DNA of 64,000 bases from Candidatus Vogelbacteria bacterium. GTDB taxonomy: Bacteria > Patescibacteriota > Minisyncoccia > Phycocordibacterales > XYD1-FULL-46-19. The position numbers were made by a program, and so were the translations under genes. The notes under the pieces were generated by a model. It was not told the origin of the DNA. It ran no database searches and saw nothing but the letters and a program-made list of their open reading frames with translations. The stretch covers positions 78,482 through 142,481 of the forward strand of contig CAIRHC010000007.1 in assembly GCA_903878275.1 (NCBI GenBank), given 5' to 3'. Shown one piece after another: positions 6,666 through 61,768 of this stretch (position 1 is its first letter; each line of letters starts with the position of its first letter).

Positions 6666-7937
6666 ATGTTGACAGCATTTTTTAATAAACTCAATTTAAT
6701 CTTAAGCGACAAAAGTTTAAGAGGCAGAATCCTGTTTATTGTTGGTGCTTTGGCTGTTTTTCGTTTTTGTGCCGCTATTCCAATTCCTGGTGTTAATGTT
6801 TTACAGCTTGAGAAATTTTTAAGCAACAACCAGTTTTTTGGTTTGTTGAATATTTTGTCTGGTGGTGGTTTGTCCAATCTTTCAATTATGATGCTTGGTG
6901 TCGGGCCGTTTATTACGGCGTCGATTATTATGCAACTTTTGACGATGGTTTCGCCGAAATTGAAGCAACTTTACCACGAAGAAGGACAAATGGGGCGACG
7001 TAAAATTGCCCAATACTCTCGTTTGCTGACTGTTCCGCTTGCTTTTTTGCAAGGTCTCGGTTACTTGGTCTTGCTCGAAAAACAAGGTATTTTGATGAAT
7101 CTAACTAGTTTTGAAAAATTAATAAACATTATCGTCATCGTCGCTGGCTCACTTTTGATTATGTGGATTGGTGAATTGATTACCGAATACGGTATTGGCA
7201 ACGGTGTCTCGATGATTATCTTCTCTGGTATCGTGTCTCGTTTGCCGTCGGCGATGTCTGAACTCGCCGTGACTTTTGAACCATCCCAAGCCCCAATGCT
7301 CCTTGGTTTTGGCGTGCTTATTGTGCTGGTCTTGGCGGGCATTGTTTTTATGACCGAAGCCGAGCGACCAATTCCGATTACTTATGCCAAGCGGGTGCGG
7401 GGGATGAAAGTTTATGGTGGCACTTCCACTTATTTACCGATTCGCGTCAATAATGCTGGTGTGATGCCGATTATCTTTGCTTTGTCGATTATTTTGTTCC
7501 CGCAAATGATTGCCAATTTTTTGGGTGCTTATGGTGGTGCCACCAAAACAGTTGCTGATTTTCTCAATGCCTTTTTTGCCAATCAATGGTTTTACGGCGC
7601 CTCTTATTTCTTGTTGGTCTTTGTCTTTACCTATTTTTATTCCGCGATTACTTTCGATCCAGAATCAATGGCGGTCAATTTGCAGAAAAATGGTGCTTTT
7701 ATCCCTGGTGTTCGTCCTGGTAAACCAACCGAAGAATATGTGACTAAGATTTTGACTCGTTTGACTTTGGTCGGCGCACTTTTCTTGGGTACGGTGGCGT
7801 TGTTGCCGATTATCCTCAAAGGTTTGACCGGTATTGCTACTCTGGCGATTGGCGGAACTAGTATTTTGATCGTCGTCTCGGTGGCGATTGAACTAGTGAA
7901 GCAGATCAATGCGCAGATTTCGATGAGAGAATATTAG
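6666..7937 (+). CDS. secY: preprotein translocase subunit SecY
   Basis: 423 aa multi-TM; position after rplO. Confidence 0.92.
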   Translation: MLTAFFNKLNLILSDKSLRGRILFIVGALAVFRFCAAIPIPGVNVLQLEKFLSNNQFFGLLNILSGGGLSNLSIMMLGVGPFITASIIMQLLTMVSPKLKQLYHEEGQMGRRKIAQYSRLLTVPLAFLQGLGYLVLLEKQGILMNLTSFEKLINIIVIVAGSLLIMWIGELITEYGIGNGVSMIIFSGIVSRLPSAMSELAVTFEPSQAPMLLGFGVLIVLVLAGIVFMTEAERPIPITYAKRVRGMKVYGGTSTYLPIRVNNAGVMPIIFALSIILFPQMIANFLGAYGGATKTVADFLNAFFANQWFYGASYFLLVFVFTYFYSAITFDPESMAVNLQKNGAFIPGVRPGKPTEEYVTKILTRLTLVGALFLGTVALLPIILKGLTGIATLAIGGTSILIVVSVAIELVKQINAQISMREY

Positions 7938-7947
7938 AGAGGGTAGG

Positions 7948-8112
7948 CATTTGAGTGTAACTTTTAAAACCACAGAAAAAGCCCCAGCGGGGCTTTTTCC
8001 TTTGCTTCAAGTCGCCATTTCGCCCTCGTTCGCCAAAGGCGAACAAAAACAAAGGGCGAAAACCATGCTGGCGATAATTCCGCAGAGGTTTTTAAAAGTT
8101 ACACTCAAATGC
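7948..8112. repeat. 25-bp inverted repeat (gcatttgagtgtaacttttaaaacc / ggtttttaaaagttacactcaaatgc) enclosing ~115 bp with nested hairpins
   Basis: arms read directly; the overlapping ORF 7951..8244 is probably spurious. Confidence 0.6.
7976..7998 (+). terminator. rho-independent terminator aaaaagccccagcggggcttttt after secY
   Basis: GC stem + T run. Confidence 0.6.
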
Positions 8113-8140
8113 CTTGTGGTGTGGGAAGGTTGGAGGCTAA

Positions 8141-8168
8141 AACCGCCCGAGGCAAGCCTCGGGCGGTT
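8141..8168. repeat. REP-like palindrome family 1 (aaccgcccgaggc-aa-gcctcgggcggtt)
   Basis: the same or near-identical palindrome recurs at 8879, 9763, 12655 and 19758; related ACCGCCC stems at 3361, 28789 and 39371. Confidence 0.6.
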
Positions 8169-8202
8169 TAGTTATCCACCGTTATCTTTCCAAAAATCTA
8201 GC

Positions 8203-8229
8203 GGGGGGGGGGGCTTTATTTGTTATACT
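8203..8229 (+). promoter_or_regulatory. poly-G(11) tract + extended -10 (TGtTATACT) promoter module
   Basis: G11 at 8203-8213; TATACT at 8224-8229; the module is conserved upstream of 9915 and 19947. Confidence 0.5.
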
Positions 8230-8294
8230 AAAATTAATTATTAGTTTTTTAACAATTAATCAGGTTGGTCTTTGAAAAGGCTGACCAAAAAATA

Positions 8295-8849
8295 ATGAAA
8301 AAATATCTTTTTGTCTCATTAGTTGTCGCTTCTTTTGTAATTTTGCCGGTGTTTGCCTCGGCACAAGCAGTTTCGTATCATCCAGCGGATACGAATAATA
8401 ATTATAAAATAGAGAAGGATGAATTGGTCTCATACGTTATCTCGTTTCTTTCGCCGACCGGTACCCTTGTTGGGGTGACTTTGTCTCAACTTGCACGAGT
8501 TGTTACTTTCTACAATGCTGGAGGTTATAAAGTTTATAATGGTACTAGCGATGGTTTTGCTCCTAGCCCAGCTTTTCACCCGGCTGATACCAATAAAAAC
8601 TATAAAATAGAATTATCCGAGCTGAATGCTTATCGAGAACTTTATAATCAAAAAATGATAACTTTAACTCAAGTATCAAGGGCAATTACTTTTTATAATG
8701 CCGGAGCTTATAAAGTTGATCCTAGTTCATCTGATGGGTTTGCTCCTCGACGAGTTGTGGTTAGCGAATCAGCCAATAGTGCTCAATTGGCAAGTATTGT
8801 GACCGCGCTGTCTTCTCTGTTGAATGAAATTAAGCAACTTGCAAAATAA
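8295..8849 (+). CDS. secreted protein with two ~65-aa tandem repeats (dockerin/EF-hand-like D.N.N.KIE..EL loops) and a conserved C-terminal amphipathic motif
   Basis: MKKYL signal peptide; repeats YHPADTNNNYKIEKDEL / FHPADTNKNYKIELSEL. Confidence 0.6.
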   Translation: MKKYLFVSLVVASFVILPVFASAQAVSYHPADTNNNYKIEKDELVSYVISFLSPTGTLVGVTLSQLARVVTFYNAGGYKVYNGTSDGFAPSPAFHPADTNKNYKIELSELNAYRELYNQKMITLTQVSRAITFYNAGAYKVDPSSSDGFAPRRVVVSESANSAQLASIVTALSSLLNEIKQLAK

Positions 8850-8878
8850 AACTAAATAAGATTAAGAAATGGAAAAAT

Positions 8879-8906
8879 AACCGCCCGAGGCAAGCCTCGG
8901 GCGGTT
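8879..8906. repeat. REP-like palindrome family 1 copy (likely terminator)
   Basis: aaccgcccgaggcaagcctcgggcggtt. Confidence 0.6.
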
Positions 8907-8940
8907 TGTGTTGCCAGAGCATTTTTTGTATACTAGAAAT

Positions 8941-9345
8941 ATGGAGATAACTCACCAACATAAGCTTGAAGTTGCTAAAATTGCCAAAAAATTCCAATTA
9001 AATCTAGTTGTTATTTTTGGTTCTTTTGCTAATGGAAAACAGCGAGAAGATAGCGATTTAGATATTGCCGTTTTGGGCGACAAAGAAATTTCTTTTAATG
9101 AGCAAATCGGCTTAATAAATGAATTATCTTTAATTTTTAATAAAAACATTGACTTGTCGGTGCTAAACCGAGCGAATCCACTACTACTTTTTCAAGTTAG
9201 CCAGAATTCGGTTATTATTTATGGCAGTCACGAAGAATTTTTGAAGTTTAAACTTTACGCTTTCAATGTCTACAATGATTATGCTCCCTATTTTGCGATG
9301 GAAAATAATTTGAATAAAAAAATAATCAATACTTATGCCAATTGA
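8941..9345 (+). CDS. minimal nucleotidyltransferase (MNT; MntA-like antitoxin)
   Basis: GSFANGK....DSDLD NTase motif. Confidence 0.75.
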   Translation: MEITHQHKLEVAKIAKKFQLNLVVIFGSFANGKQREDSDLDIAVLGDKEISFNEQIGLINELSLIFNKNIDLSVLNRANPLLLFQVSQNSVIIYGSHEEFLKFKLYAFNVYNDYAPYFAMENNLNKKIINTYAN

Positions 9346-9757
9346 TAAAAAACTTATAAGTCGAAAAATTACTTTGATCAACGGTGATTTAAAGAGTTTA
9401 AAAGGCTTAAACAAACTTTCACTCAAAATTTATTTAAGCAACGCGGAGTACGAAACACTGGCGGAAAGATATTTAGAAAGAATAATCGGGCGAATGATTG
9501 ATATTAATTATCATATTTTGTCAGAAAAAGAAAATGAAATGCCCACTGATTTTTACAGTTCTTTTGTTCTGTTGGGCAGAAAAAAGTATTTACCGATAAA
9601 ACTAGCTGAAACGATGGCTGGTTCGGCTGGGTTGCGGAATCGTTTGGCTCACGAGTATGATGAAATTGATGCTAAAAAAGTTTTCGGGGCGATCGATTCT
9701 TGCTTAAAAGATGTACCGAAATACCTAAAGAATATTGTTGCATCGCTGGGTTTGTAA
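9335..9757 (+). CDS. HEPN domain protein (DUF86/HepT-like toxin)
   Basis: RNRLAHEYDEID = HEPN R-x4-6-H motif; overlaps the MNT gene by 11 nt. Confidence 0.7.
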   Translation: MPIDKKLISRKITLINGDLKSLKGLNKLSLKIYLSNAEYETLAERYLERIIGRMIDINYHILSEKENEMPTDFYSSFVLLGRKKYLPIKLAETMAGSAGLRNRLAHEYDEIDAKKVFGAIDSCLKDVPKYLKNIVASLGL

Positions 9758-9762
9758 AAAAT

Positions 9763-9790
9763 AACCGCCCGAGGCTTGCCTCGGGCGGTT
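9763..9790. repeat. REP-like palindrome family 1 copy
   Basis: aaccgcccgaggcttgcctcgggcggtt. Confidence 0.6.
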
Positions 9791-9824
9791 TAGTTATCCA
9801 CCATTATTTCCCTAAAATCTATCA

Positions 9825-9851
9825 GGGGGGGGGGGCTTTATCTGATATACT
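9825..9851 (+). promoter_or_regulatory. poly-G(11) + TGaTATACT promoter module
   Basis: G11 at 9825-9835, then ctttatctgatatact. Confidence 0.5.
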
Positions 9852-9914
9852 GAATAAAATATTCGGCATTTTTAAGTTTTTAAAATTTATTATTAATAAC
9901 TAATTACAAAAATA

Positions 9915-12629
9915 ATGAAAAAATATCTTTTAGGTTTTTTACTCGTCGCTTCTTTGGTGGTGCTTCCGTCGGTGTCTCAAGCTGCTGAAGATTTAACGGT
10001 TACTTTGTATGGTTCGGGTTTGACGAAGGGTGTGGTCGGTGAGCCAGTGGTCCAAACCAGTTTTTCGGTCATGGTCACGCCAAACAACGGTGATGTTTAT
10101 TTGTATACGGGTGGGATATTAGGCATTCAACTTATTCAAGATGGAGGTCGCCCAATGCCCGATAATTGTACTTATAGCCAGAGCCTTACGGGGACATTGC
10201 CTATAGTTACGCATCCTCTAGGAAGCCAATATTATAAACTTGCCAGAGGCACCACTGCTCGTTTCAATGCATCTGTTTATTGTAAGATCAGTCAAATGCA
10301 TCCTGGTACTTATTATGGAAAACTTAGTCACGTAACATATAGCAAGACTGATCCTACGACAACAAACAGTTGGTATGATCAAAATATAGAAAACATCAGG
10401 ACACCAGCATCTATAAATATGTATGTTCTCGGCGAGACTGGTCCGTGGATTAGTTTGGCTGTGGCTAAGGCTGTTCAAGGTGGTTATGAGATTGTTTTAA
10501 CAGGAGAAAGATTGGGTCAGGTAAGAAGCGTGTTCCTGAACAACAAAACATACACTCCCTCAGCCAAACCTGGTGACTCTGTAAGTTTTTTTGCCAGTAT
10601 TGCTGATTTACCTGCCGGTAATTATCCTAGTTATGCTAATTTCTCTGGTGGTAAAAGTAATAATTTTTATCTGATGGTTGGAGGTAGTTCGATTGGAATT
10701 ATTTCACCCAATGGAGGGGAAAATTTAAATGAAGGTTTCGATTATCCTATAAGATGGACAAATTATAATATCACCTCGCCAACCGTTAACGTGGGAATTG
10801 AAAGATATGATAGTTCTGGGGCGTCTCAAGGTTCAACAAATATTATCACTGTCCCAACTACACAAAACAATTCCTATCTTTGGAGGGTTAATCCAAATTT
10901 AGCTTGGCAGGGAACACCGGTGAATCCTTCTTCTGGCCCTTTTAAGTATAAAATTTATGTTAATACTCCAGTCGGTGTTTCCCCAGTTGTTTCTGATTAT
11001 AGTGATAATTATTTTACTATAGCTGCATTAAATCCGACAGCCAAAGTCGCTGTCACCTCCCCAAAAGGAGGAGAGTCATTAGCTCAAGGCTCTACTTATA
11101 ATATTACGTGGAATGCTGCTAGTACTGTCACTAAAGTTGCCATCAGTCTTCTTAAGGGTGATATCGTTCGCTCTACTTCTATTATCAATCCGGTATCAGC
11201 TTCGGCGGGAACTTATGCTTGGAAAGTTGGAAACACCGCAGCGGGAATGATGGAGCCTGGGACTGATTATCGAATCAAAGTTTATGGTGTGACCGATGCC
11301 GGTGTCCCTATTGCGGATGCTAACAGTACCAGTAATTATTTCAGTATTGTGGTATCAGCACCAGCGACCGCTCCCACCATTAATAGTATTACTCCAAACA
11401 CCGCACCGATCGGAACTGCTTCTCGGGTAATCATCCGAGGCTTAAATTTCAGTATCGGTGATACTGTGTATCGTTTTGACGGAGAAATTCAAAGTCAACC
11501 ATTCTGTACTATCGGCGTTAACGCCAATGGGAACTACGACTGTCTTCCTGCTAAACTACCCGCTGGTGCGTACAAGCTTGCGGTGGTAAACTCTCGTGGG
11601 ACGAGCAATAAAGTGGATTTTACTTTTACTCCAGCTACGGCTATACCCACTCTTTCTGTGTCGCTAGATCCTTCTAACCCAACCAGACAAAACATCGGTG
11701 CGGGATCTATTGATCAAGTTTTTGTTAGAATTAAAGTTACCGCCGGATCGATGGATGTTAATAATCTTCAAGGAATCCAACTTGGTTCAGATTCTGCTAA
11801 TGCCAATGATTTTATAACCAACATAAAAGTTTTTGATGGGGCAAATCAGTTGGGTGGAACCATCTCTGGGTTGGACAATAATGGAAAAATTTTTTATAAA
11901 TGGACTTATCCTACTGGCGTAATGATTCCAGCTGGTACCTCTAAGATTCTGACCATTGTCGCCGAAGTGAAATCGACAGCTTCTAGCAATAGCAATTTTC
12001 GTTTAGGTATAACTGGCTGGAATTTTGTTTTTCCGGGGACTGCTGTGGAGCCGTTCGGGACACCGATATATGGTAATTATATGACGATAACGGCTTTGAC
12101 AGATCAGCCGACAATCACCGCAGTAGCAATGGCTTTACCAAATTGTTCTCTTGGTGCGATCAACTGTACTTGGCAGGCGGGGACAGATGGATATTATCTT
12201 TGGGGTTACCTTAATCCTAATACTCCGACCGGTAATACCGTCTCGGTTAGTCTTTGTGCCCCAGACGGAATAACCTGTACGATAGCAAAAGATGCTTCAC
12301 TTAAGGATCTCAACAAAGTACCGTCAAAAACTGGAACCGGATTAGGTAACCTGAATTCTGATAAGGCACCGCTTGGTCGTGGTGTTTTAACCAACCCAGA
12401 TCTGGTGGGAGGGAAGAATCCTGTTATCGTCAATAATCAGTCAACCTTAAAAATCTGCCCAACCAATGCCGACGGTTCGCCTGTGACTAGTGGTATTTGC
12501 AAGGTTAGTCCGGTTTTTACCATTACTCCGCCAGCTACCGCTAGTAATTCTCTGGTGAGTCGACAGTTGGCAAGTATTATTACAGTTTTGTCGGATTTAT
12601 TGGCGAAGATTCGGGGATTGGCTTGGTAA
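9915..12629 (+). CDS. large secreted multi-domain surface protein (Ig-like SPNGGE..W..ITW domains, IPT/TIG-like module)
   Basis: 904 aa, signal peptide MKKYLLGFLLVASLVVLPSVSQA; shares a ~260-nt module with the 19947 gene. Confidence 0.7.
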   Translation: MKKYLLGFLLVASLVVLPSVSQAAEDLTVTLYGSGLTKGVVGEPVVQTSFSVMVTPNNGDVYLYTGGILGIQLIQDGGRPMPDNCTYSQSLTGTLPIVTHPLGSQYYKLARGTTARFNASVYCKISQMHPGTYYGKLSHVTYSKTDPTTTNSWYDQNIENIRTPASINMYVLGETGPWISLAVAKAVQGGYEIVLTGERLGQVRSVFLNNKTYTPSAKPGDSVSFFASIADLPAGNYPSYANFSGGKSNNFYLMVGGSSIGIISPNGGENLNEGFDYPIRWTNYNITSPTVNVGIERYDSSGASQGSTNIITVPTTQNNSYLWRVNPNLAWQGTPVNPSSGPFKYKIYVNTPVGVSPVVSDYSDNYFTIAALNPTAKVAVTSPKGGESLAQGSTYNITWNAASTVTKVAISLLKGDIVRSTSIINPVSASAGTYAWKVGNTAAGMMEPGTDYRIKVYGVTDAGVPIADANSTSNYFSIVVSAPATAPTINSITPNTAPIGTASRVIIRGLNFSIGDTVYRFDGEIQSQPFCTIGVNANGNYDCLPAKLPAGAYKLAVVNSRGTSNKVDFTFTPATAIPTLSVSLDPSNPTRQNIGAGSIDQVFVRIKVTAGSMDVNNLQGIQLGSDSANANDFITNIKVFDGANQLGGTISGLDNNGKIFYKWTYPTGVMIPAGTSKILTIVAEVKSTASSNSNFRLGITGWNFVFPGTAVEPFGTPIYGNYMTITALTDQPTITAVAMALPNCSLGAINCTWQAGTDGYYLWGYLNPNTPTGNTVSVSLCAPDGITCTIAKDASLKDLNKVPSKTGTGLGNLNSDKAPLGRGVLTNPDLVGGKNPVIVNNQSTLKICPTNADGSPVTSGICKVSPVFTITPPATASNSLVSRQLASIITVLSDLLAKIRGLAW

Positions 12630-12654
12630 GAAAAATATAGATTAAGAAACGGGA

Positions 12655-12686
12655 AAACCCCGCCGAGGCAAGCCTCGGCGGGGTTT
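12655..12686. repeat. REP-like palindrome family 1 variant / terminator
   Basis: aaaaccccgccgaggcaagcctcggcggggtttt. Confidence 0.6.
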
Positions 12687-12720
12687 TGCTTTTTGGTTAT
12701 GTTGGCGTTATGATTAGGAA

Positions 12721-17800: not shown

Positions 17801-17883
17801 AGCTAACTAAATTTTACCTGTTGGTGGCGGTTGTGATATACTTAAACAAGTTTTTATTATCAATTATTAATTAATTTAAATAA

Positions 17884-19713
17884 ATGAAAAAATATCTCGT
17901 AGTTTTAATACTTGTCGGACTAATCATCTCGACTCCTTTGGCAACCCAAGCTTTTAGTGGAGGGGATCTCTCTTCGCTTATTACTAAAATAGAAAATCTT
18001 ATTGTTCAGTTGAAGCAAGTGCAACTGGCAGCGGTTTTTAGTAGAAACCGGGTAGTCAAAAAAGCCCCGACACCGACACCTACACCAGCCACGGGTACTT
18101 ATTATGTCGATTGTGCCAGTACTGCCAACGATAATAATGCTGGTACTAGTGCAACAAAGCCTTGGCATACCATCGGCCGTGCTTCTTGTATGAGTGATAA
18201 TCCGCAGTGTGGCTCTTTTAAACCTGGCGATACTATTTTGTTTAAACGGGGTTGTACCTGGACTGGCGAGCAATTAACCATCAACACGTCTGGCACTGCT
18301 GGTAAGCCAATTACTATCGCTGACTACGGCACTGGTAATTTGCCGATTATACAGGGCAGTGTCTCTGCTCCAGTTGGTGTTGGTAACGTAAGAGATATGA
18401 TTAATGTAAACGGCAAGAGCTATCTGACATTTCAAAATCTAGAAATAAGATATGCTGAAAATCCGGTGGTTGTAAATAATTCTAGCAATATTGTTTTAAA
18501 TAATCTTAATATTCATGACAATATCGGCTACGGTGCCATTCTTTTAACCGCTGATAGTCAGAGTACAACAAATAATACCGTAAGTAATACTACAATATAC
18601 AATACCAAAGCCAGTACCGAATCAGGACAGATTGGCGAAAATGGCGACCCCAATAGTCGTGGTCATGGAATTTTTATGTTTTCTAATTCAAGTCAGTCAT
18701 TGGTAAATAATAACATTTTTACCGGCAATACTATTTATAATAATGGTGAGTCTGGTATCGACATGATTTTGGGATCAAATAATCGCTTTAGTCAAAATAA
18801 AATTTATAACAATGGCAGTTCCGGCATTAGTTTGGTAAGTGTTAACGGTGAATCTAATGGTAATATTGTTGAGAACAATCTTGCTTACAATAATGGTCAA
18901 ACAACCGACGACGTTGCCGGTATCGATTTGCATCGTATCGGTAGTAATAATATTGTAAGGTATAATGCGGTTTATAATACAGTTGATGCTTTAATAGCGC
19001 CGACAATCCCAGCTCGTCCATGGAATAATGGTACAAAATACGGCAACGTTGGCATTAGATTTGATAGTAATACTGACCAGTCAGTACCGGTGATTGCTGC
19101 CACTGGTAATCAAGTTTATTACAATCTAATCGTTGGCGGCACTTATAATTTTATGAATATTCGCAATACCGGTCTATCATTCTTCAACAATATTCTACAT
19201 AACAGCTCATCGGATAATGTCCGAATTCATAACAGTAAAGATGTTCTTGATTTTGTTTTTAAGAATAATATTCTTACTCGTAATAGTAATAACGAAAACG
19301 TTTATTTTGTTCGCATTCAAGATGCTAAAAATGTTACTGATCCTGCTAAGTTCAACAATAATATGTATTATTCTTCGGTCGCTGGTGGCAAGTTCTGCGC
19401 GCTTACAGATAAAGATGCTTGGTGCTTAAATCCGGTTACGACGCTGGCTGATTGGCAAAGTCAAAGTGGCTTTGATAAAACAAATTCGTTAATAGCTAAT
19501 CCTCAATTTTCAGCAACTGCTCCGACAAGTGTTTCGGCAACTAATATTGAGAGCGCAGTCAGTAGCTTTAAACTAAACGCTACTTCACCAGCCTTGGATA
19601 AGGGTGCCACAGATGTGACTGCTGGGTTATCGTTAGCTCAAGATTATTTTAGTCAAAGCGTGCCGTACGGCAGTAGCTTACCAGATCTTGGCTTTAGCGA
19701 AATTGCTAAATAA
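17884..19713 (+). CDS. secreted right-handed beta-helix (pectate-lyase-fold) protein
   Basis: signal peptide; PTPTPTP linker; repeated NN..IxNN and IYNNG.SGI PbH1-like turns. Confidence 0.7.
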   Translation: MKKYLVVLILVGLIISTPLATQAFSGGDLSSLITKIENLIVQLKQVQLAAVFSRNRVVKKAPTPTPTPATGTYYVDCASTANDNNAGTSATKPWHTIGRASCMSDNPQCGSFKPGDTILFKRGCTWTGEQLTINTSGTAGKPITIADYGTGNLPIIQGSVSAPVGVGNVRDMINVNGKSYLTFQNLEIRYAENPVVVNNSSNIVLNNLNIHDNIGYGAILLTADSQSTTNNTVSNTTIYNTKASTESGQIGENGDPNSRGHGIFMFSNSSQSLVNNNIFTGNTIYNNGESGIDMILGSNNRFSQNKIYNNGSSGISLVSVNGESNGNIVENNLAYNNGQTTDDVAGIDLHRIGSNNIVRYNAVYNTVDALIAPTIPARPWNNGTKYGNVGIRFDSNTDQSVPVIAATGNQVYYNLIVGGTYNFMNIRNTGLSFFNNILHNSSSDNVRIHNSKDVLDFVFKNNILTRNSNNENVYFVRIQDAKNVTDPAKFNNNMYYSSVAGGKFCALTDKDAWCLNPVTTLADWQSQSGFDKTNSLIANPQFSATAPTSVSATNIESAVSSFKLNATSPALDKGATDVTAGLSLAQDYFSQSVPYGSSLPDLGFSEIAK

Positions 19714-19875: not shown

Positions 19876-19901
19876 GGGGGGGGGGCTTTCTGTGATATAC
19901 T
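19876..19901 (+). promoter_or_regulatory. poly-G(10) + TGaTATACT promoter module
   Basis: G10 at 19876-19885, then ctttctgtgatatact. Confidence 0.5.
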
Positions 19902-19946
19902 TAAACAAGTTTTTATTATCAATTATTAGTTTAATTTATTTTATTT

Positions 19947-21779
19947 ATGAAAAAATATCTCGTAGCCTTGGCACTAGTCGGGCTAATCATCTCGACTCCT
20001 TTGGCAACCCAAGCTTTTAGTGGAGGGGATCTCTCTTCGCTTATTACTAAAATAGAAAACCTTATTACTCAATTAAAACAATTTCAATTGGGTGCGGTCG
20101 GAACTATCACTGGAGAATCAGCGATTTTAAGTGATTTTGTTTTTACTCCATCCTCACCGTTGGCGATCAACACTACTATCACTGGGAAAGTTAAAATTAC
20201 CAACAACGGCACTGTCGCTCTTCCTGGAGCTGGATATGGTTTGAGGGCGACAAATGTGACAGATTCTAAATTTCTATTTTCTGTTTTTGTGCCCACTATT
20301 CAGCCTGGAGCTTCGGTTGTTCTCCAAAATGGTATGACCTTCTCGTTCCCGACAGCTGGCTACAAAGATACTTTGTGGGAATTAATAAAGGTGGGCAGTA
20401 CTGTGCCTTTGACGACGACTCATCAATATCTCGTGGCGGGGGAAAGTGCCGGTCTTCTTTTTGATTCTTTCTCGCTGGCTTCTCCTGTTGCTCCAAATAC
20501 CAATGTCACCGCGAGTATCAAAGTGGTCAGTAATGGTACCGCTTTATCTGGCTATCAGCTCGTCGGAACGAGTGACACTGGTTTAGTTATCCCAACTATT
20601 ACTGATGTTTCTGTCCCCTCGGCTAGCCCGGCTGGTATTCAAATTAAAACTTTTACCACCCCACCATTTAATTCTGGTACATCCGGAAACTCGGTCATTA
20701 CTTGGAAATTAATTAAAGGCACTACGGTTTTGGGAAATGCGGTGACGGGGACTTTGATGGTGGGTCAAGCAACTCCTTCTATTGCTGTAATTTCCCCAAA
20801 TGGAGGAGAAAATTGGAAAGTGGGTGAAACACATAATATTACTTGGAAGACTAAAGACCTTCCGTCGTCAGATATAATTAATATTAATTTGTTACAGAAG
20901 AATAATGCAATGTTGTTTGTGGCCAATGCTATTAATTCCGGTTCTTATTCTTGGACGATCCCTGTTGAAATGCATGGTTTCAATTTAAATGAGGACGATA
21001 ATTATAAAATACAGCTTCTCGATAATAAGGCGCAACCTTCTTATTTTTCTGACTTGAGCGATACTTATTTTAGTATTTTGGAATCACCTACCACTCCCAC
21101 CGTCAATAGTATTACTCCAAACACCGCACCGATCGGAACTACTTCTCGAATAATAATCAGAGGTTTAAATTTCAGCATCGGTAGCACCATCTATACTTTT
21201 AATGGAGAGACGAAGGACAAACTGTTCTGTACTATCAGCGTCAACGCCAATGGGAACTATGATTGTCCTCTTCCTGCTACTTTTTCCGCTGGTGCATACA
21301 AACTTGCGGTGGTAAACTCTCGTGGGACGAGCAATAAGGTAGATTTTACGTTTACTTCTATTCCTGTTATTACTAATTTAACTGTGGCGTCTACCTCAGC
21401 TATTTTAGGTCAAGGTATTGGTAGTCCGGTCGATCGTTATCCTGTCACTTTTTCTTTTACTCTGGTTAATTCAGGCGATATTCCTTTGTATTTGTCGAAT
21501 AATCCTTCAATTGCATTTGCAACAGTGACATCTCCCGTAAATTCTCCATCTAGTGTTTCTTCTTTTCTTGCGTCTCTTTTACCGGGGGATTCACCTGGTG
21601 CATATGTTATACCGGCGAACGGACAGAGAAGATTCGTAGCTTCTGGACTGATTATGAGTTCTCTTCAAGGAGCAGGGTTACAAATTGTGAGTATATTTTA
21701 CGGTACTTCAGCCAGTGATTTGAGAGCCCTGAACATAGATGTTTCTCGTAAAGGTTTGGGTCAAATGGTGCTTAATTAG
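19947..21779 (+). CDS. secreted surface protein (paralogue of the 17884 N-terminus; Ig-like and IPT-like modules)
   Basis: first ~45 aa near-identical to the 17884 gene; IPT module ~85% nt identical to 11383-11640. Confidence 0.7.
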   Translation: MKKYLVALALVGLIISTPLATQAFSGGDLSSLITKIENLITQLKQFQLGAVGTITGESAILSDFVFTPSSPLAINTTITGKVKITNNGTVALPGAGYGLRATNVTDSKFLFSVFVPTIQPGASVVLQNGMTFSFPTAGYKDTLWELIKVGSTVPLTTTHQYLVAGESAGLLFDSFSLASPVAPNTNVTASIKVVSNGTALSGYQLVGTSDTGLVIPTITDVSVPSASPAGIQIKTFTTPPFNSGTSGNSVITWKLIKGTTVLGNAVTGTLMVGQATPSIAVISPNGGENWKVGETHNITWKTKDLPSSDIININLLQKNNAMLFVANAINSGSYSWTIPVEMHGFNLNEDDNYKIQLLDNKAQPSYFSDLSDTYFSILESPTTPTVNSITPNTAPIGTTSRIIIRGLNFSIGSTIYTFNGETKDKLFCTISVNANGNYDCPLPATFSAGAYKLAVVNSRGTSNKVDFTFTSIPVITNLTVASTSAILGQGIGSPVDRYPVTFSFTLVNSGDIPLYLSNNPSIAFATVTSPVNSPSSVSSFLASLLPGDSPGAYVIPANGQRRFVASGLIMSSLQGAGLQIVSIFYGTSASDLRALNIDVSRKGLGQMVLN

Positions 21780-23438: not shown

Positions 23439-23894
23439 ATGGCGAATTTAGTCGAAAACAAAAAAATATTCCTTAATTATGAAGTGCTCGACGAATATGA
23501 AGCGGGCATTGAGCTTTTGGGGGCGGAGGTCAAAATGATCAAAAGTCATCACGGCTCACTTGAAGGTGCTCGAGTTTTGATTCGTGGAGCCGAAGCTTTT
23601 TTGGTCGGTTTTAATTTGCCAATTTATCAACCAAACAATCCCAGCTCGGCTTATGAATCCGAACGAACGCGAAAATTAATGTTGAAGAAAAAAGAAATCG
23701 CGGAGCTTGTCGGCAGAGGGGAACAGAAAGGATTGACAATCGTGCCAATTTCAATGTATAATAAAGGGAGGTTAATTAAGGTAAAAATCGCCGTGGTACG
23801 CGGGAAGAAAAAATTTGATAAACGCGAGAGCTTAAAGAAAAAAGAAGCCAAGCGTGACGTCGCTCGTGAGATGAAGGGCTCTTTGAAAAATTAA
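23439..23894 (+). CDS. smpB: SsrA-binding protein
   Basis: 151 aa; sequence recognisably SmpB. Confidence 0.9.
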   Translation: MANLVENKKIFLNYEVLDEYEAGIELLGAEVKMIKSHHGSLEGARVLIRGAEAFLVGFNLPIYQPNNPSSAYESERTRKLMLKKKEIAELVGRGEQKGLTIVPISMYNKGRLIKVKIAVVRGKKKFDKRESLKKKEAKRDVAREMKGSLKN

Positions 23895-24248: not shown

Positions 24249-24652
24249 GGGGATGATCGGCTTCGACAGGTAGCCTTTCTCTAGTGTGTATGTGGAGACT
24301 CCGAATCCTCCTTAAACATCGGAAAAACAGTCAAATGCCAACGCATCTGACAAGGGACTTGTGGCTTCGCCATATTTCTCTCCAGCCTTGGCTTTAGCCT
24401 AACGCTGGTGCTGGCTTAAATCGCAGTCTGGATGATTTAAGTTGGTATAATAAATTCTGGACTAGCAATTAAACATTTCTCGGTTTAAAAGCGAAACAAA
24501 GAGAATCGACTAATTAAGGTTTTGTTTGTTTAACACTTAGTTAGTTTAAATCCGCTCGGCGATTAGCCGAGCGGGACATAAACAATCTACACATATAGAT
24601 TCACTAAAGTAACCTATTTGCACGGGGGTTCGATTCCCCCCATCTCCACCCA
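24249..24652 (+). ncRNA. ssrA: tmRNA (ssrA)
   Basis: 5' GGGGATGATCGGCTTCGACAGG; 3' tRNA-like GGGGGTTCGATTCCCCC T-arm + CATCTCCACC with a G3:U wobble; internal tag ORF ending ..PALALA-TAA at 24337-24402. Confidence 0.8.
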
Positions 24653-50884: not shown

Positions 50885-50994
50885 GGTTTCCGAGGTCGAA
50901 CCTTAAATCCCCAAAAAGTTTACCCTGTAGTGAAAAATTCTCGTTTTTCTACTACCGGGGGTTCGACTTCAAATTTAAAAAACAAAAAATAATT

Positions 50995-51369
50995 ATGGTC
51001 AAAAAAGAAATAAAATCAAAAGTTACTCTAGAAAGTCTGAATCAGACGGTTGAAAATTTGGCGACCATCACCAATCGTCGTTTTGATGATACTCATAAAT
51101 TGATAGAAAATTTGGCTACCACTATGGCCAAGGGTTTTTCGAATACCAATGAACTGATAGAAAATCTCGCAATTAGCACCAAGGCTGGTTTTGATAAGGT
51201 AGATGAAAGATTAGATAAAGTTGAATCAGATATTACCGTCATAAAATCAGACATTACCGGCATCAAACAACGCCTGACCAGCCTAGACAACCGCCTAGAT
51301 ACGTTTGTCGATCACGAAAAGCGTTTGACCAAAGTGGAGTCCACCTTGAAAATCAGGGTCAAACATTAA
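50995..51369 (+). CDS. coiled-coil protein, paralogue 1 of 3
   Basis: MVKKEIKSKVTLESLNQTVENLA...; C-terminal 30 aa identical to the 55833 copy. Confidence 0.55.
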   Translation: MVKKEIKSKVTLESLNQTVENLATITNRRFDDTHKLIENLATTMAKGFSNTNELIENLAISTKAGFDKVDERLDKVESDITVIKSDITGIKQRLTSLDNRLDTFVDHEKRLTKVESTLKIRVKH

Positions 51370-51621
51370 AATAGCGGGGAATTATCCACCGTTTACTCTT
51401 AAACCTCCTAGGCATTGCAATCTCTCGGTGCTATAATTAAAAAATTAAAAACAACATTATTATTTAATAATCAATTATTTCCGGAAAATTTTGCCAAGCA
51501 AAATTTTCCGGTCAACAAATAAGCTTCCCCGAGGTCGAGTCGTTTCTCGGAGGTCGAACCTTAAATCCCCAAAAAGGTTTGACCTCGGATAATTCGACCT
51601 CGGGGAAACAAAAACATTTCT

Positions 51622-52131
51622 ATGAAAAAATATTTAAATAAATCTAGTGGTTTTACTCTTATTGAACTCCTGGTCGTCATCGCCATCATCGGTATCCTGG
51701 CGGGGATTGTGCTTACTTCGCTATCGAGCGCTAGAAATAAAGCCAATGATGCTAAAATTATTTCACAACTTGGTCAGATCCGTTCAGCTGCCGAATTAAA
51801 TTTTAACCCCAATGATGGTCAAGGCGGCTGGGGCCAGGCAAGCTCTACCCAGACCTGTGGCAATGCGGCCGCACCTACAACACCCCCCACCGTAGCCCCA
51901 CTTTTTAAAAAGCCAGAGTTAGTCAAATTAATTTCTAGTACCGCAGCCCTCTCTAGTGGTGGGACATATTGTAACGTGATCCCTGCCTCGGGTACCGCCC
52001 GAGCTTCTTGGTTATTCGGAGCAACACTTGTTTCAGATACTAGTAAGACCTGGTGCGTTGATTCTTCGGGCAATTCAAAACTAATTACGCCAGGAACAAT
52101 CTTCAACACTGCAATGACTGTTTGCCCATAA
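51622..52131 (+). CDS. type IV pilin (prepilin, class III signal)
   Basis: MKKYLNKSSG|FTLIELLVVIAIIGILAGIV. Confidence 0.88.
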   Translation: MKKYLNKSSGFTLIELLVVIAIIGILAGIVLTSLSSARNKANDAKIISQLGQIRSAAELNFNPNDGQGGWGQASSTQTCGNAAAPTTPPTVAPLFKKPELVKLISSTAALSSGGTYCNVIPASGTARASWLFGATLVSDTSKTWCVDSSGNSKLITPGTIFNTAMTVCP

Positions 52132-52170
52132 ATATAATTTAAAATTATTAACTAACATAATTCAAAATTC

Positions 52171-52671
52171 ATGATTCATAATTCATCTAAAAAAGGTTTC
52201 ACCTTGATCGAGCTTCTTGTTGTCATCGCCATTATCGGTATTTTAGCCGGCATTGTGCTGACTTCACTTAGCACAGCTAGGACCAAGGCTCAAGATGCGC
52301 AGGTTATTTCACAATTAGGTCAAATGCGTTCAGCTGCCGAAATTTATTATTCAGGTACTGGTGGAGGTACGTATGGCGTAGTCGCAAACACTTGCTCGAC
52401 AGGCAGTTCTTTGTTTCTTGATGATACTACTGGTATGGGTAAATTAATTACTTCTACTCTTGCGATTGCTATCGCTGCTAATGTCGATTGTGGTGTTCTT
52501 GCTGGAGGTTCTGCGTGGTCTGTCGCCGCAAAATTGCCCGGCGGTTTATGGTATTGTGTTGACAGTACTGGTGTCTCAAGAGGGAGCACTGCTGCTGGGG
52601 CTGCTTACACTGCTTTGACTGGTGCTGCTAGTGCTGCACATATTTCTGCTGGCGGTTCTGCTTGTAATTAA
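52171..52671 (+). CDS. type IV pilin
   Basis: KKG|FTLIELLVVIAIIGILAGIV; C-terminal Cys pair. Confidence 0.88.
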   Translation: MIHNSSKKGFTLIELLVVIAIIGILAGIVLTSLSTARTKAQDAQVISQLGQMRSAAEIYYSGTGGGTYGVVANTCSTGSSLFLDDTTGMGKLITSTLAIAIAANVDCGVLAGGSAWSVAAKLPGGLWYCVDSTGVSRGSTAAGAAYTALTGAASAAHISAGGSACN

Positions 52672-53547
52672 AGCTGGAGGAGGCTTCGCCTCCTCTCAAA
52701 AACAAGGTGAAACAAGGTGAGGCAAAAACAAGGGGAGGTTGAAACAAGGGGAGGTTGAAACAAGGGGAGGTTGAGCCTCCCCTTTGGCGTTGGTTGTGTT
52801 ATAATATAATCAATGTCTCGTAATATTGAATTAGCGATTGATGAATATTATCACATCTTTAATCATGGCAACGGTGACCGACTAATTTTTATTGACGAAA
52901 AAGATAAAGAGCGATTTGTTAAACTACTCTTTTTAGCTAATGGTTGTAACTCTTTTGATTTTGAAGATCTTTCTTCTGGTCAAGAATTCTCTTTTGATCG
53001 TGGTGAGACACTCGTCGCCATTGGCACGTGGTGTTTAATGGATAATCATTATCATCTATTAATTAAAGAAACCACCGATGGTGGAATTAGTCAGTTTATG
53101 CATCGTCTAGCAACTAGCTATACAATGTATTTCAATCGTCGTCATAGAAAAAGGGGAAGTTTGTTTGAGGGACGGTTTCGAGCAAAACACTTAGGTCAGG
53201 ATGAATATTTAAGACATATCTTTGCTTACACCCATCTCAATCCCGTGAAAATGATTGAGCCAAAATGGAAAGAGGTTGGGTTGAAGAATTTGCCGACAGT
53301 CACTAAATTTTTAAAAGAGTATAGATTTTCTAGCTATCTTGATTATCTCGGCGTTGAGCGAAAAGAAAATAAAATTCTTGATAGAGGAGCTTTTCCGCAA
53401 TACTTTTCAAACCCGGAAGAGATCGAGGTTGAAATGATGGACTGGCTAGATTTCGGTAATTTTTATTAGGGTTAATTTTGGGGTGGGGGTCATCAATATT
53501 ATAACACAAATGATACCCCTAGGGGAGGCTCAACCTCCCGACGGGCA
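52672..53547 (+). mobile_element. IS200/RAYT-like element: HUH Y1 transposase gene flanked by inverted hairpin termini (ggggaggttgagcctcccc ... ttgtgttataatat)
   Basis: left end 52765-52806 and right end 53489-53541 are reverse complements of each other; stuttered partial repeats (aacaaggggaggttga x3) at the left end. Confidence 0.65.
52813..53469 (+). CDS. HUH-superfamily Y1 transposase (IS200-like / REP-associated tyrosine transposase-like)
   Basis: NHYHLL (HxH) and YTHLNPVK (Tyr + NPVK) motifs. Confidence 0.7.
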   Translation: MSRNIELAIDEYYHIFNHGNGDRLIFIDEKDKERFVKLLFLANGCNSFDFEDLSSGQEFSFDRGETLVAIGTWCLMDNHYHLLIKETTDGGISQFMHRLATSYTMYFNRRHRKRGSLFEGRFRAKHLGQDEYLRHIFAYTHLNPVKMIEPKWKEVGLKNLPTVTKFLKEYRFSSYLDYLGVERKENKILDRGAFPQYFSNPEEIEVEMMDWLDFGNFY

Positions 53548-53833
53548 TCAGCGGTAGGGAAGTAGCAAAAAAGCAAAAAGGGGATAACTACTTTTTCTCG
53601 GTTTATTTTTTTGTGGTATCATGCTTAAAGTAATATCAAATTTATTAAAATTATTAGCTTTTAAGAGATGTCCAGAAAATTTTGCTTGGCAAAATTTTCC
53701 GGAAAAGGCTAAAACATCAAAAGACGTTCGCCTAAACAAAAAAAATATGAAAAAAATTAAAGAACTAACCGGAAAAATTTTTTCAGGAAAAAATTTTTCC
53801 GGTCAAGTCCAAAATAATAAAGCCTGCCCCGTA

Positions 53834-54298
53834 GTGAAAAATTCTCGTTTTTCTACTACTGGGGGCTTCACTTTAATCGAATTATTAGTCGTCATTGCCA
53901 TTATCGGTATTTTAGCCGGCATTATTTTGGTTTCCCTAAGTAGCGCCAGGACCAAAGCCAAGACCACTGCCACCTTTGCTTCACTGAATGGTTTAAGACC
54001 AGCGATCGCGATGTGTTGCGGGAATGGGAGTGACTTGGTTGGGGCTGGAACACCACCAGAAACACAAATACCAGCTGTCGGCGGAACAGACATCTGTGAT
54101 GCGGCTAATCCTGTCGGTGTCAATTTACCGACCGCTGCCCAACTTGGGGTTAATATTGTAGAATATACTGCGACGAAAGGTTGTTCTGATCCCGAACCAT
54201 ATTTTTCTGTTCAAACCTCTGGTTCTTCTAATCCTCTTTGTGATAGTGCCGGCACATACACCATCGGTGTCTCAACTTCGTCGTCTCCGTGCAACTAA
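53834..54298 (+). CDS. type IV pilin; GTG start at 53834 preferred, alternative ATG at 53747 would give a 40-aa leader
   Basis: ..KNSRFSTTGG|FTLIELLVVIAIIGILAGII; the sequence between 53747 and 53834 contains a REP-like palindrome. Confidence 0.7.
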   Translation: MKNSRFSTTGGFTLIELLVVIAIIGILAGIILVSLSSARTKAKTTATFASLNGLRPAIAMCCGNGSDLVGAGTPPETQIPAVGGTDICDAANPVGVNLPTAAQLGVNIVEYTATKGCSDPEPYFSVQTSGSSNPLCDSAGTYTIGVSTSSSPCN

Positions 54299-54584
54299 CA
54301 TTAATTAGTAGCGAAGAATTTTATTTTTACCTCAAATTCTTAAGGTTGTGAAAAAGAATAAAGAACTAACCGGAAAAATTTTTTCAGGAAAAAATTTTTC
54401 CGGCCAACCTCATCACCAAAAAGCCTACCCTGATTTCTCGGAGGTCGAACCTTAAATCCCCAAAAAGTTTACCCCGTAGTGAAAAATTCTTATTTTTCTA
54501 CTACTGGGGTTCGACCTCGGAGAATACAACCTCGGGAAAACAGGCTAAAACATCAAAGATGTTCGCCTAAACAAAAACATTTTT

Positions 54585-55163
54585 ATGAAAAAATATTTAC
54601 AACCCACAACCCAGAAACTACAACTTAGCCGTGGCTTCACCTTAATAGAGCTTCTGGTTGTCATCGCCATTATCGGTATTTTGGCGGGCATTGTCCTGAC
54701 TTCGCTTTCTAGCGCTCGAGCAAAAGCCAAAGATTCCGCCCTTATCTCTGGCTTGTCTGGTTTAAGATCGCAGATTGAGACGGTGGCTAGTGATAATTAT
54801 GGACCAATAGTTGGAGCTTGGGGAGTTAAATCGGACGGCACAGGGACAACTGGTTCTAAGGGTGTAACGGATTCGTCTGTTTGTTCTACTTATGCTAGTA
54901 CTGATGGTGGCGTAGTTTATAAAATGATGAAAGATCTAGCCAAACAATCTGGTAATAACGTCGTTTGTGCGGTGGGAGTTGGTGGAAGAACCTGGGTAAT
55001 TTTTGGAGTTTTGCCTAGTACCGCTAATCCTAATGACCCTACTACTGCTGATTATTATTGTTATGATAGTTCTGGTGGTTCTAAAAAACAGGTCGGTTTC
55101 CCGGTGAATGTAGTTGGTGCTGGAGTGGAAAATGTCAATCTTGATGTAAAATGTCAGTCATAG
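54585..55163 (+). CDS. type IV pilin
   Basis: ..LQLSRG|FTLIELLVVIAIIGILAGIV. Confidence 0.88.
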   Translation: MKKYLQPTTQKLQLSRGFTLIELLVVIAIIGILAGIVLTSLSSARAKAKDSALISGLSGLRSQIETVASDNYGPIVGAWGVKSDGTGTTGSKGVTDSSVCSTYASTDGGVVYKMMKDLAKQSGNNVVCAVGVGGRTWVIFGVLPSTANPNDPTTADYYCYDSSGGSKKQVGFPVNVVGAGVENVNLDVKCQS

Positions 55164-55412
55164 ACATTATTTAAATTTAAAAAAATTATCCCCGGAATTT
55201 TTGCTAGCAAAAATTCCGGGGATAATTCTCAAAACTAAATTTCCTGAAAATTTTAAAAATCGGCTGGCGCAACCGCTCGGATTTGCCAGGGCAAATCCGA
55301 GCGGTTGCCACTTTTCCTCTCTGCGAACCTCCAAACCAGTGGATAACTCCGTATGTAATCTTTTTTTTATATGTTATTATTTAGACAATGGTGAAAAAGA
55401 GAAATCATAATT

Positions 55413-55754
55413 ATGATTAAAAAAGAAATAAAACCAAAAGTTACTCTAGAAAGTATTAATAATACGATTGAGCACTTGGCTATAAGTGTGGCAAATGGTT
55501 TTGCTGCCGTCGATGAAAGATTTAATAAGGTAGATGAAAGATTTGAGCAGGTAGATAAAAGATTCGATAAGGTTGAAAACGATATTGTCGTGATAAAAAA
55601 AGACTTAAATATCGTCAAGACCGATGTCGCTGTCCTAAAGACCGACTTGCGAAAATTAGACCACAAGATTGGTCTGGTAGATAAAAGAAATCGCGAAGAT
55701 ATCGACGCTCTCGCTTCCGATATGGTGTTGGTCAAGAAAAAAGTGTCTTTATGA
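55413..55754 (+). CDS. coiled-coil protein, paralogue 2
   Basis: MIKKEIKPKVTLE..; FNKVDERFEQVDKRFDKVE heptads. Confidence 0.55.
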   Translation: MIKKEIKPKVTLESINNTIEHLAISVANGFAAVDERFNKVDERFEQVDKRFDKVENDIVVIKKDLNIVKTDVAVLKTDLRKLDHKIGLVDKRNREDIDALASDMVLVKKKVSL

Positions 55755-55832
55755 GTTTGAACCTTACCGGAAATTTTGACTAGTCAAAATTTCCGGTAAG
55801 GTTCCCCAAACATTTTTAAAATAAACATAATT

Positions 55833-56174
55833 ATGATTAAAAAAGAAATAAAACCAAAAGTTACCTTGGAAGGTCTGAACCAGACGGTTGAGAAATTGGC
55901 TACTAGTATGATCAAGGGTTTTGCTCATACTCACGAGCTGATCGAAAATCTGGCGATCAGCACCAAGGCTGGTTTTGATAAAGTAGACGAAAGATTTGAT
56001 AAAGTGGATGAAAGATTAGATAAAGTGGAGGGGAGATTAGGTAAGGTTGAAAACGACATCACTGGCATCAAACAACGCCTGACCAGCCTAGACAACCGTC
56101 TAGACACTTTTGTCGATCACGAAAAGCGTTTGACCAAAGTCGAATCAGCCTTGAAAATTAGAGTCAAACATTAA
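55833..56174 (+). CDS. coiled-coil protein, paralogue 3
   Basis: MIKKEIKPKVTLE..; C-terminus identical to paralogue 1. Confidence 0.55.
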   Translation: MIKKEIKPKVTLEGLNQTVEKLATSMIKGFAHTHELIENLAISTKAGFDKVDERFDKVDERLDKVEGRLGKVENDITGIKQRLTSLDNRLDTFVDHEKRLTKVESALKIRVKH

Positions 56175-61306: not shown

Positions 61307-61530
61307 AAGAAAAAGGCAAGGTTCAAAAAGGCAAGGTTCAACCTTACCTCTGGGTACCATTTGTGTTGTAATATTTTTAAGCTTAACGGGTATAAAAAAA
61401 GGCAAGGTTCAACCTTACCTCTGGGTACCATTTGTGTTGTAATATTTAAAACTGTTTCGAAGGTAGGAAAAAGGCAAGGTTCAACCTTACCTCTGGGTAC
61501 CATTTGTGTTGTAATATTTTTAAGCTTAAC
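61307..61530. repeat. tandem array of three ~52-bp units (aaaaaggcaaggttcaaccttacctctgggtaccatttgtgttgtaatattt), period ~77 bp
   Basis: three identical copies read directly; each is a hairpin plus a TTGTGTTGTAAT tail like the RAYT element termini. Confidence 0.7.
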
Positions 61531-61768
61531 GGGTATAAAAAATCTTTTTCAATTTGTCATCGCTAAAACATCTCTCCAGTGAACGTAAAATAGATTTTAG
61601 CGTTCCTCGATCAAGCTCTTCGTGCAGGGGAATAGTTATGAAATAAGCCACTTTACCGACTTTCATTACTAATCTGGCGTGGCTACCTTTTTGTCTAATT
61701 TTCAAAAAACCTTCGGCGAGAAGAATTTGCAATAGGTTTTTACCAGAAATTCTGCGAAGTTTAGGCAT
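61526..61768 (-). CDS. hicA: HicA-family mRNA interferase toxin
   Basis: MPKLRRISGK.L..IL...GF...RQKGSHARL. Confidence 0.8.
   Translation of the reverse strand: MPKLRRISGKNLLQILLAEGFLKIRQKGSHARLVMKVGKVAYFITIPLHEELDRGTLKSILRSLERCFSDDKLKKIFYTR

Follow-up and report, generated by a model that had tools for sequence, protein, structure and literature searches.

Terminal coiled-coil helices are found in the stalk of Deinococcus SlpA, next to its SLH domain, and in fibrous adhesins and phage fibres, as terminal segments for trimerisation. In E. coli, PBP5 and PBP6 (DacA and DacC) are exported with a cleaved signal peptide and carry a C-terminal amphipathic helix that serves as a membrane anchor. 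CPR/Patescibacteria are tiny, mostly episymbiotic, bounded by a single membrane and dependent on surface proteins for their biology. The C-terminal sorting domains, including LPXTG, PEP-CTERM, GlyGly-CTERM and MYXO-CTERM (bioRxiv 10.1101/2023.06.07.544157), are short, lineage-restricted, placed at the extreme C-terminus of Sec-exported surface proteins and attached to varied passengers. Dockerins, which bind cohesins in the non-covalent docking of secreted proteins, have a Ca-binding duplicated EF-hand-like fold.

The C-terminal helix tag considered here can be compared with each of these systems. Like terminal coiled-coil and leucine-zipper helices, it has aliphatic a and d positions over three heptads at a free extracellular terminus, and the second helix of its canonical carriers adjoins a peptidoglycan-binding domain, as in terminal coiled coils next to a wall-binding domain; it differs in its length of only about 20 residues, its invariant LASI(SDA) with polar residues and the lack of a PDB relative. 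With PBP5/PBP6 it shares an amphipathic C-terminal helix of about 20 residues, without transmembrane segment and with a comparable moment, but aromatic and basic residues abound in the PBP5 tail, whereas the tag is aliphatic, Ala-rich and nearly neutral, with conserved polar positions. The tag shares the four features of sorting domains listed above, but it has no transmembrane helix, basic cluster or NCBIfam match, and its carriers are few in any one genome region. Its proposed function would be non-covalent docking of secreted proteins, as in the dockerin-cohesin system, but the tag is a single helix and not the dockerin fold.

The window, by which the whole analysed stretch of 64,000 nucleotides is meant, has a G+C content of 40.7% and is CPR/Parcubacteria-like; type IV pilus genes are present at 43-61 kb. 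The examined region is a ribosomal-protein operon, in which the gap between secY (6666-7937) and adk (12721) contains three extra transcription units. The first is a gene at 8295-8849 with a 184-aa product, the second is an MNT/HepT toxin-antitoxin pair (8908-9757, Pfam) located between both tag-carrying genes, and the third is a gene at 9915-12629 with a 904-aa product. All three units are flanked by copies of one terminator hairpin, AACCGCCCGAGGCAAGCCTCGGGCGGTT, which lie at 8141, 8879, 9763 (loop inverted) and 12654. The toxin-antitoxin pair consists of an MNT-like nucleotidyltransferase (PF18765/PF01909) and a HepT-like RNase (PF01934). The 3'UTR segment GATTAAGAAAYGGRAAAA that follows both tag genes resembles the ribosome-binding site and start of adk (12712) with 2 mismatches. 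Together with the hairpins of the secY-adk junction (7938-12720), this suggests serial duplication or insertion at one site, but the resemblance could be due to chance. The four secreted-protein genes of interest, referred to by their first coordinate, are as follows.

8295-8849, forward strand: secreted-protein gene (184 aa) with a signal peptide, two ~65-aa dockerin/EF-hand-like modules, an S/N-rich linker and the C-terminal helix tag
9915-12629, forward strand: secreted-protein gene (904 aa); the product has several domains of Ig-like type (Kre9_KNH, TIG) and ends in the helix tag
17884-19713, forward strand: gene of a 609-aa right-handed beta-helix protein with an N-terminal helix after the signal peptide
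19947-21779, forward strand: gene of a 610-aa Ig-domain protein (Kre9_KNH and TIG Ig-like domains) with an N-terminal helix after the signal peptide

In gene 8295, positions 8376-8750 encode the module twice, following the pattern HPADTNxNYKIE..EL....T..Q..R...FYNAGxYKV....DGFAP, with an EF-hand/dockerin-like loop; the match of the modules to Pfam EF-hand_6 is sub-threshold (E=0.002). The sole other occurrence found of this ~65-aa module is at the C-terminus of a papain-like protease from Staskawiczbacteria (P0002), and the module may be an undescribed docking module. The TIG regions of genes 9915 (11362-11663) and 19947 (21085-21389) are about 80% identical in DNA, which indicates that domains have been exchanged among surface-protein genes.

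The protein encoded by gene 8295 ends in ..SAQLASIVTALSSLLNEIKQLAK, with ANSAQLASIVTALSSLLNEIKQLAK encoded at 8772-8846 just before the stop codon, and the protein encoded by gene 9915 ends in ..SRQLASIITVLSDLLAKIRGLAW, with VSRQLASIITVLSDLLAKIRGLAW encoded at 12555-12626 just before the stop codon. The shared pattern that the preliminary description had reported at the ends of these two genes was confirmed, with 16 of 27 residues identical (BLASTP E=1e-4). The elements of the two tails are listed below.

8787-8846, forward strand: C-terminal helix tag LASIVTALSSLLNEIKQLAK of gene 8295, which reaches the stop codon and comprises three heptads with a/d = L,I,L,L,I,L
From 8778, forward strand: S/N-rich lead-in SAQ of the 8295 tag
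12567-12626, forward strand: C-terminal helix tag LASIITVLSDLLAKIRGLAW of gene 9915, paralogous to the 8295 tag

Aligned as LASIVTALSSLLNEIKQL (8295) and LASIITVLSDLLAKIRGL (9915), both tails have the a/d series L,I,L,L,I,L, so that they agree at all a/d positions of the heptads. After LASI, the canonical S-D-A becomes VTA in 8295 and ITV in 9915. The tags are preceded by the linkers SESANSAQ (8295) and ASNSLVSRQ (9915). BLASTP similarity between the two proteins is limited to the last 27 residues and the signal peptide (13/23 identical); the signal peptides, MKKYL..ASAQA and ..SVSQAA, were judged by eye. The two genes have 57% DNA identity over the helix-coding part, and synonymous codon differences occur at 7 of the 14 conserved tail residues; therefore, the tail has been kept at the protein level. 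Within the window, the C-terminal helix is present in only 2 of about 10 proteins with signal-peptide-like N-termini, and the N-terminal helix in only 2, so the idea of a general tag of the window's secreted proteins has to be given up.

The similarity of the two genes extends to their non-coding ends, and genes 8295, 9915, 17884 and 19947 share a 5' module made up of a promoter and the MKKYL leader. The following elements were recognized.

8141-8294, forward strand: 5' module with a terminator hairpin, G11 (8203-8213), CTTTATTTGTTATACT and the MKKYL start
9763-9914, forward strand: related copy of the 5' module upstream of gene 9915, with G11 at 9825-9835
Upstream of gene 19947, forward strand: related copy of the 5' module, with G10 at 19876-19885
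Upstream of gene 17884, forward strand: related copy of the 5' module, degenerate
8850-8906, forward strand: 3'UTR GATTAAGAAATGGAAAAA and terminator hairpin AACCGCCCGAGGCAAGCCTCGGGCGGTT, common to the 9915 gene
12630-12687, forward strand: homologous 3'UTR and terminator hairpin after gene 9915

The genes thus resemble variable passengers set between gene ends that are conserved. The 3'UTR and terminator are better conserved between 8295 and 9915 than the helix itself. It could be argued that the helix has no separate function, being either packed on the preceding domain or a relic of duplicated gene ends, as the shared promoter, signal peptide, 3'UTR and terminator would let a duplication of gene ends explain both tails. 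This explanation appears quite improbable, since the amino acids of the tail were retained although its DNA has diverged by 43%. Structure prediction by AF2 gave a helix at residues 162-183 of the 184-aa protein P0001 (single sequence, overall pLDDT 39) and a tail helix at residues 739-762 of P0023 (shallow alignment, overall pLDDT 52). The models provide secondary structure only and no usable fold, and the pLDDT of both tail helices is below 50. These values are consistent with helices that are not packed on the monomer, and the absence of a confident packing in the models likewise speaks against the first form of this explanation.

G tracts of at least 7 occur only three times in the window (8203-8213, 9825-9835 and 19876-19885; 10-11 G). 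All three lie immediately upstream of CTTTaTnTGwTATACT and about 70-90 nt before the starts of genes 8295, 9915 and 19947. In the promoters of tag-carrying genes in other genomes, G8, G6 and G5 tracts are present at the equivalent place, one G tract lying at L004 2680-2687. The G-tract promoters are candidates for slippage-prone, phase-variable promoters.

Beyond the window, no orthologues of the 8295 and 9915 proteins were found among 5.8 billion proteins. The 184-aa protein matched, besides itself, solely the papain-like protein of Staskawiczbacteria mentioned above, through the 65-aa module, and all database matches of the 904-aa protein run through its Kre9_KNH domain only. When contigs were scanned with the complete 904-aa sequence, 21 pattern matches resulted, and not one of them was confirmed. 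Three of the domain-level relatives share the tail type at the same distance from the C-terminus.

Relative 1, C-terminus: ..QSSLASISDAITKIVQEIQAMLNK
Relative 2, C-terminus: ..QSSLASISDAVSKLAEQIKSLLSR
Relative 3, C-terminus: ..QNQIASIYQALLNILAQLNATPQ

The preliminary description had looked to orthologues for conservation of the motif; such orthologues are missing from the databases, but the tail is conserved in these domain-level relatives. The two window tails and these three were combined into a 33-column profile, and a HMMER search of 1.84 billion representative proteins with it gave 18 matches (E<=1e-3), 13 of which were new. Ten of the 13 were single-stretch matches, and all ten end 0-3 residues from the C-terminus. 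The proteins P0033, P0034 and P0045 were rejected as false positives, being proteins with internal multi-copy repeats that score through summed stretches. The single-stretch carriers are large Parcubacteria (Staskawiczbacteria-type) surface proteins ending in ..SQSSLASISDAIAKIxAQIKAMLNK. Scans with a degenerate pattern covered 185,579 species representatives, of which a single genome was confirmed, Candidatus Staskawiczbacteria RIFOXYB1_FULL_38_37; in metagenomes, 12 loci were confirmed. The loci confirmed by tblastn in the metagenomes and in this genome all end 0-2 residues before the stop codon. The preliminary description had named absence from other secreted proteins and lack of conservation in orthologues as grounds for refutation; as far as homologues go, this refutation fails, since the motif recurs at the C-terminus of relatives' surface proteins.

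The relationship of the two window tails to this family was examined with an HMM of 17 canonical tails from which the window was left out. The 8295 tail was the top of 1130 six-frame segments (E=0.0055, 12.9 bits), in register and one residue from the end. This result and the terminal position of all ten single-stretch database matches show that the resemblance exceeds chance. The 9915 tail was not detected by this canonical-only HMM among the window segments, and it is joined to the family only via 8295 (16/27 identical) and the homologous 3'UTR. The best explanation, as judged by sequence comparison, is that the last 20-21 residues of the 8295 and 9915 proteins represent a diverged version of a lineage-restricted tag at the C-terminus of Parcubacteria surface proteins. 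The IF3, L20 and SmpB proteins of the carrier organisms are 40-47% identical to those of the window, and recurrence of the tail at this distance, after different domains, is another point against a relic of duplicated gene ends. In the loci L004, L009 and L010 the canonical carriers sit upstream of rplT, with infC and smpB beyond in L004 and L010. About 20 distinct carriers make up the family, all from uncultured groundwater Parcubacteria of a few lineages; given this small size and the single genome among 185,579, a generic display system is unsupported.

The canonical tag can be written as ..[SN]Q[SN]S-LASISDA-[ILV]xK-I-xxQ-I-[KQ]x-[ML]L-xK-COOH. L-A-S-I is the same in all of 19 distinct canonical copies, S-D-A follows it with little variation, and the a/d positions of the three heptads are always I, L, V or M in every copy. 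The e positions are also apolar, which leaves a narrow polar face and a wide apolar one formed by a, d, e and Ala. The copies have a net charge of 0 to +1 and hardly any aromatic residues, and they usually end in Lys or Arg. The hydrophobic moment is 0.34-0.55 and the mean Eisenberg hydrophobicity 0.05-0.42. The window tails contain E, K, D, N and Q, nothing follows them, and neither a transmembrane stretch nor a basic tail was found after the tag. A short S/T/N/Q-rich linker precedes the tag, and the passenger domains before it include Kre9_KNH Ig repeats, Dockerin_1, a region with an HExxH motif and a cysteine-rich CxxWxxC..NNCG module. In several carriers a dockerin-type module stands immediately before the tag (P0037: Pfam Dockerin_1, E=9e-14), and in 8295 it is preceded by the two EF-hand/dockerin-like modules. 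These features support the view that the tag is a real, conserved and terminus-specific module of predicted secreted proteins whose passenger domains differ. Neither Pfam nor NCBIfam has a model that matches the tag at E<=0.1 (window proteins) or E<=1 (canonical carriers), a PDB profile search with the tag gave noise only and no sequence relative, and no published description of the motif was found in the literature.

A fixed distance from the C-terminus, an invariant LASI core, a low-complexity linker before it and attachment to varied passenger domains are also properties of signals that are read, and perhaps removed, by a protease, transpeptidase or export factor, as in the LPXTG, PEP-CTERM and GlyGly-CTERM systems. 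That the tag is such a processing or sorting signal is nevertheless very unlikely: the tripartite architecture is missing, charged residues lie inside the motif, and no sorting-domain model of NCBIfam or Pfam matches even at E<=1. Moreover, the genes within the 10-kb flanks of the carriers show housekeeping synteny only and contain no conserved partner or enzyme family, and there is usually one carrier per locus, in contrast to the many substrates per genome that are typical of sorting systems.

The helix following the signal peptide of genes 17884 and 19947 was described at first as similar to the C-terminal one. Both genes start with MKKYLV..LATQAFSGGDLSSLITKIENLI[VT]QLKQ, and the helices are located as follows.

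17968-18027, forward strand: helix LSSLITKIENLIVQLKQVQL of gene 17884, immediately following the site TQA|F at which the signal peptide is predicted to be cleaved
20031-20090, forward strand: near-identical helix LSSLITKIENLITQLKQFQL of gene 19947

Between -52 and codon 47 the two genes have about 97% DNA identity and beyond this point they diverge abruptly, which points to a recent gene conversion or 5'-end duplication. Segments 17832-18025 and 19891-20088, with promoter, signal peptide and N-helix, are near-identical and are followed by unrelated passenger domains. Because the two N-helices go back to a single recent duplication at the DNA level, they count as one instance, and this duplication is in keeping with the notion that helices of the window are relics of gene-end duplication. 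In an ungapped BLOSUM62 scan of 60 window proteins (17,022 residues), the N-helix was the best non-self match to the C-tails (score 65, against 43 for the match ranking second). Searching with an HMM of the two window C-tails gave no significant match to the window N-helices (E about 7-14), and these were not detected by the canonical N-helix HMM either (E>10). A helix is thus present after the signal peptide in both genes, but it is not demonstrably the same motif; as the similarity is not significant by HMM, the N- and C-helices are not treated as one.

In the canonical proteins, the N-helix comprises about 25 residues directly after the signal peptide, e.g., LIAQLQAQIASLLAQIQ or LIAQLQAQIAxLxAQIQ, and adjoins a PG_binding_1-like domain. 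All 11 canonical carriers whose N-terminus could be read have both the N-helix and the C-tag, and proteins with the N-helix alone exist among the relatives. The window sequence LSSLITKIENLI.QLKQ is identical to the N-helix of the syntenic Staskawiczbacteria locus L004 at 9 of 14 aligned positions, as counted by eye. Gene 19947 lies upstream of rplT-infC-smpB, the same place as canonical tag-carrying genes (L004 2788-6096); unlike the syntenic carriers of both helices it has no C-tag, which in the window is on two other genes. From position and synteny we conclude that the helix of 17884 and 19947 probably belongs, in diverged form, to a separate N-helix class, and that it does not represent another C-tag. 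The likeness of the two classes is suggestive, though short of proof.

As to function, we tentatively propose, with nearly even confidence, that the tag is a helix for protein-protein docking or oligomerisation on the cell surface. Sec export and cleavage of the signal peptide would expose the amphipathic C-terminal helix, which would then pack into a short helical bundle with other tag copies, with the N-helix of other envelope proteins, or with another envelope protein. Through such bundling, proteins that themselves lack a wall-binding domain, e.g., 8295 and 9915, could be oligomerised or tethered. The N-helix of 17884 and 19947 would be the window version of the second helix class, which in the canonical proteins lies next to the PG_binding_1-like domain. 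This docking function is suggested by the coiled-coil periodicity, with apolar a/d positions over three heptads, and by the frequent position of the tag right after dockerin-type docking modules, the 8295 protein consisting of two such modules plus the tag. It is also suggested by the fusion pattern, in which the N- and C-helices are united in one protein in the relatives and split here, with 8295 and 9915 carrying the C-helix only and 17884 and 19947 the N-helix only. The rank of the window N-helix as best non-self match to the C-tails agrees with this reading. Of the possibilities raised in the preliminary description, namely a novel sorting, anchoring or oligomerisation signal, oligomerisation or docking is plausible in view of the heptad pattern, and the architecture of known sorting signals is lacking; nothing was found to connect the tag with pili or with an S-layer.

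The wide apolar face (a, d, e and Ala) also fits a helix lying on a membrane surface or buried in a groove. In the membrane case, the helix would lie flat on the outer leaflet of the single membrane as an in-plane anchor, as in E. coli PBP5/PBP6, or, in a variant, it would insert into the host membrane during episymbiosis. The strictly C-terminal position, the length of about 20 residues and the amphipathic character agree with such an anchor, as does the moment of 0.34-0.55, compared with 0.43 computed for the PBP5 tail; the usual terminal Lys or Arg is suited to this role as well, and 8295 and 9915 have no other recognisable anchor. We regard the in-plane anchor as unlikely, since the helix has a net charge of just 0 to +1 and almost no interfacial aromatic residues, and since canonical carriers already possess the PG_binding_1-like wall-binding domain at the opposite end. 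Furthermore, S, S, D and A are nearly invariant, which lipid-binding helices seldom need; the nearly invariant A, S, S, D and A of the first heptad can be argued to favour specific protein packing over lipid contact.

Docking between the tag and a protein partner might be extended to a cognate pairing of the two helix classes. The N-helix and the LASI helix would then bind each other, carriers of both, with a peptidoglycan-binding domain beside the N-helix, would form a head-to-tail wall scaffold, and proteins with a single helix (8295, 9915, 17884 and 19947) would plug into it. As the similarity of the N- and C-helices is not significant by HMM in either direction, N-C pairing is speculative, and the scaffold is regarded as rather doubtful. 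If it were true, it would represent a non-covalent helix-zipper system for surface display specific to some CPR bacteria, in which poly-G promoters and conserved gene ends would let the displayed repertoire switch and swap. A tag outside Pfam and NCBIfam on large surface proteins could provide a 20-residue handle for studying envelope assembly, for finding partners and for annotation. Its reach is limited to a small family in a few lineages of groundwater Parcubacteria and to a function deduced from sequence.

Several other elements were observed in the window. A tmRNA gene is present at 24249-24651 (Rfam RF00023, 138 bits), adjoining smpB (23439-23894). Just after the pseudopilin gene cluster, at 61325-61542, a unit of 71-72 nt occurs three times in tandem (two identical, one 83%) and matches no Rfam family. 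Families of direct repeats and palindromes of 35-150 nt are located at 50885-56174, in intergenic regions and at the 5' ends of type IV pilin-like genes, and include a conserved segment coding for the pilin N-terminus in four copies. In the same pilin-gene region, blocks of 100-120 nt are duplicated at 51.1-51.4 kb and 55.9-56.2 kb.
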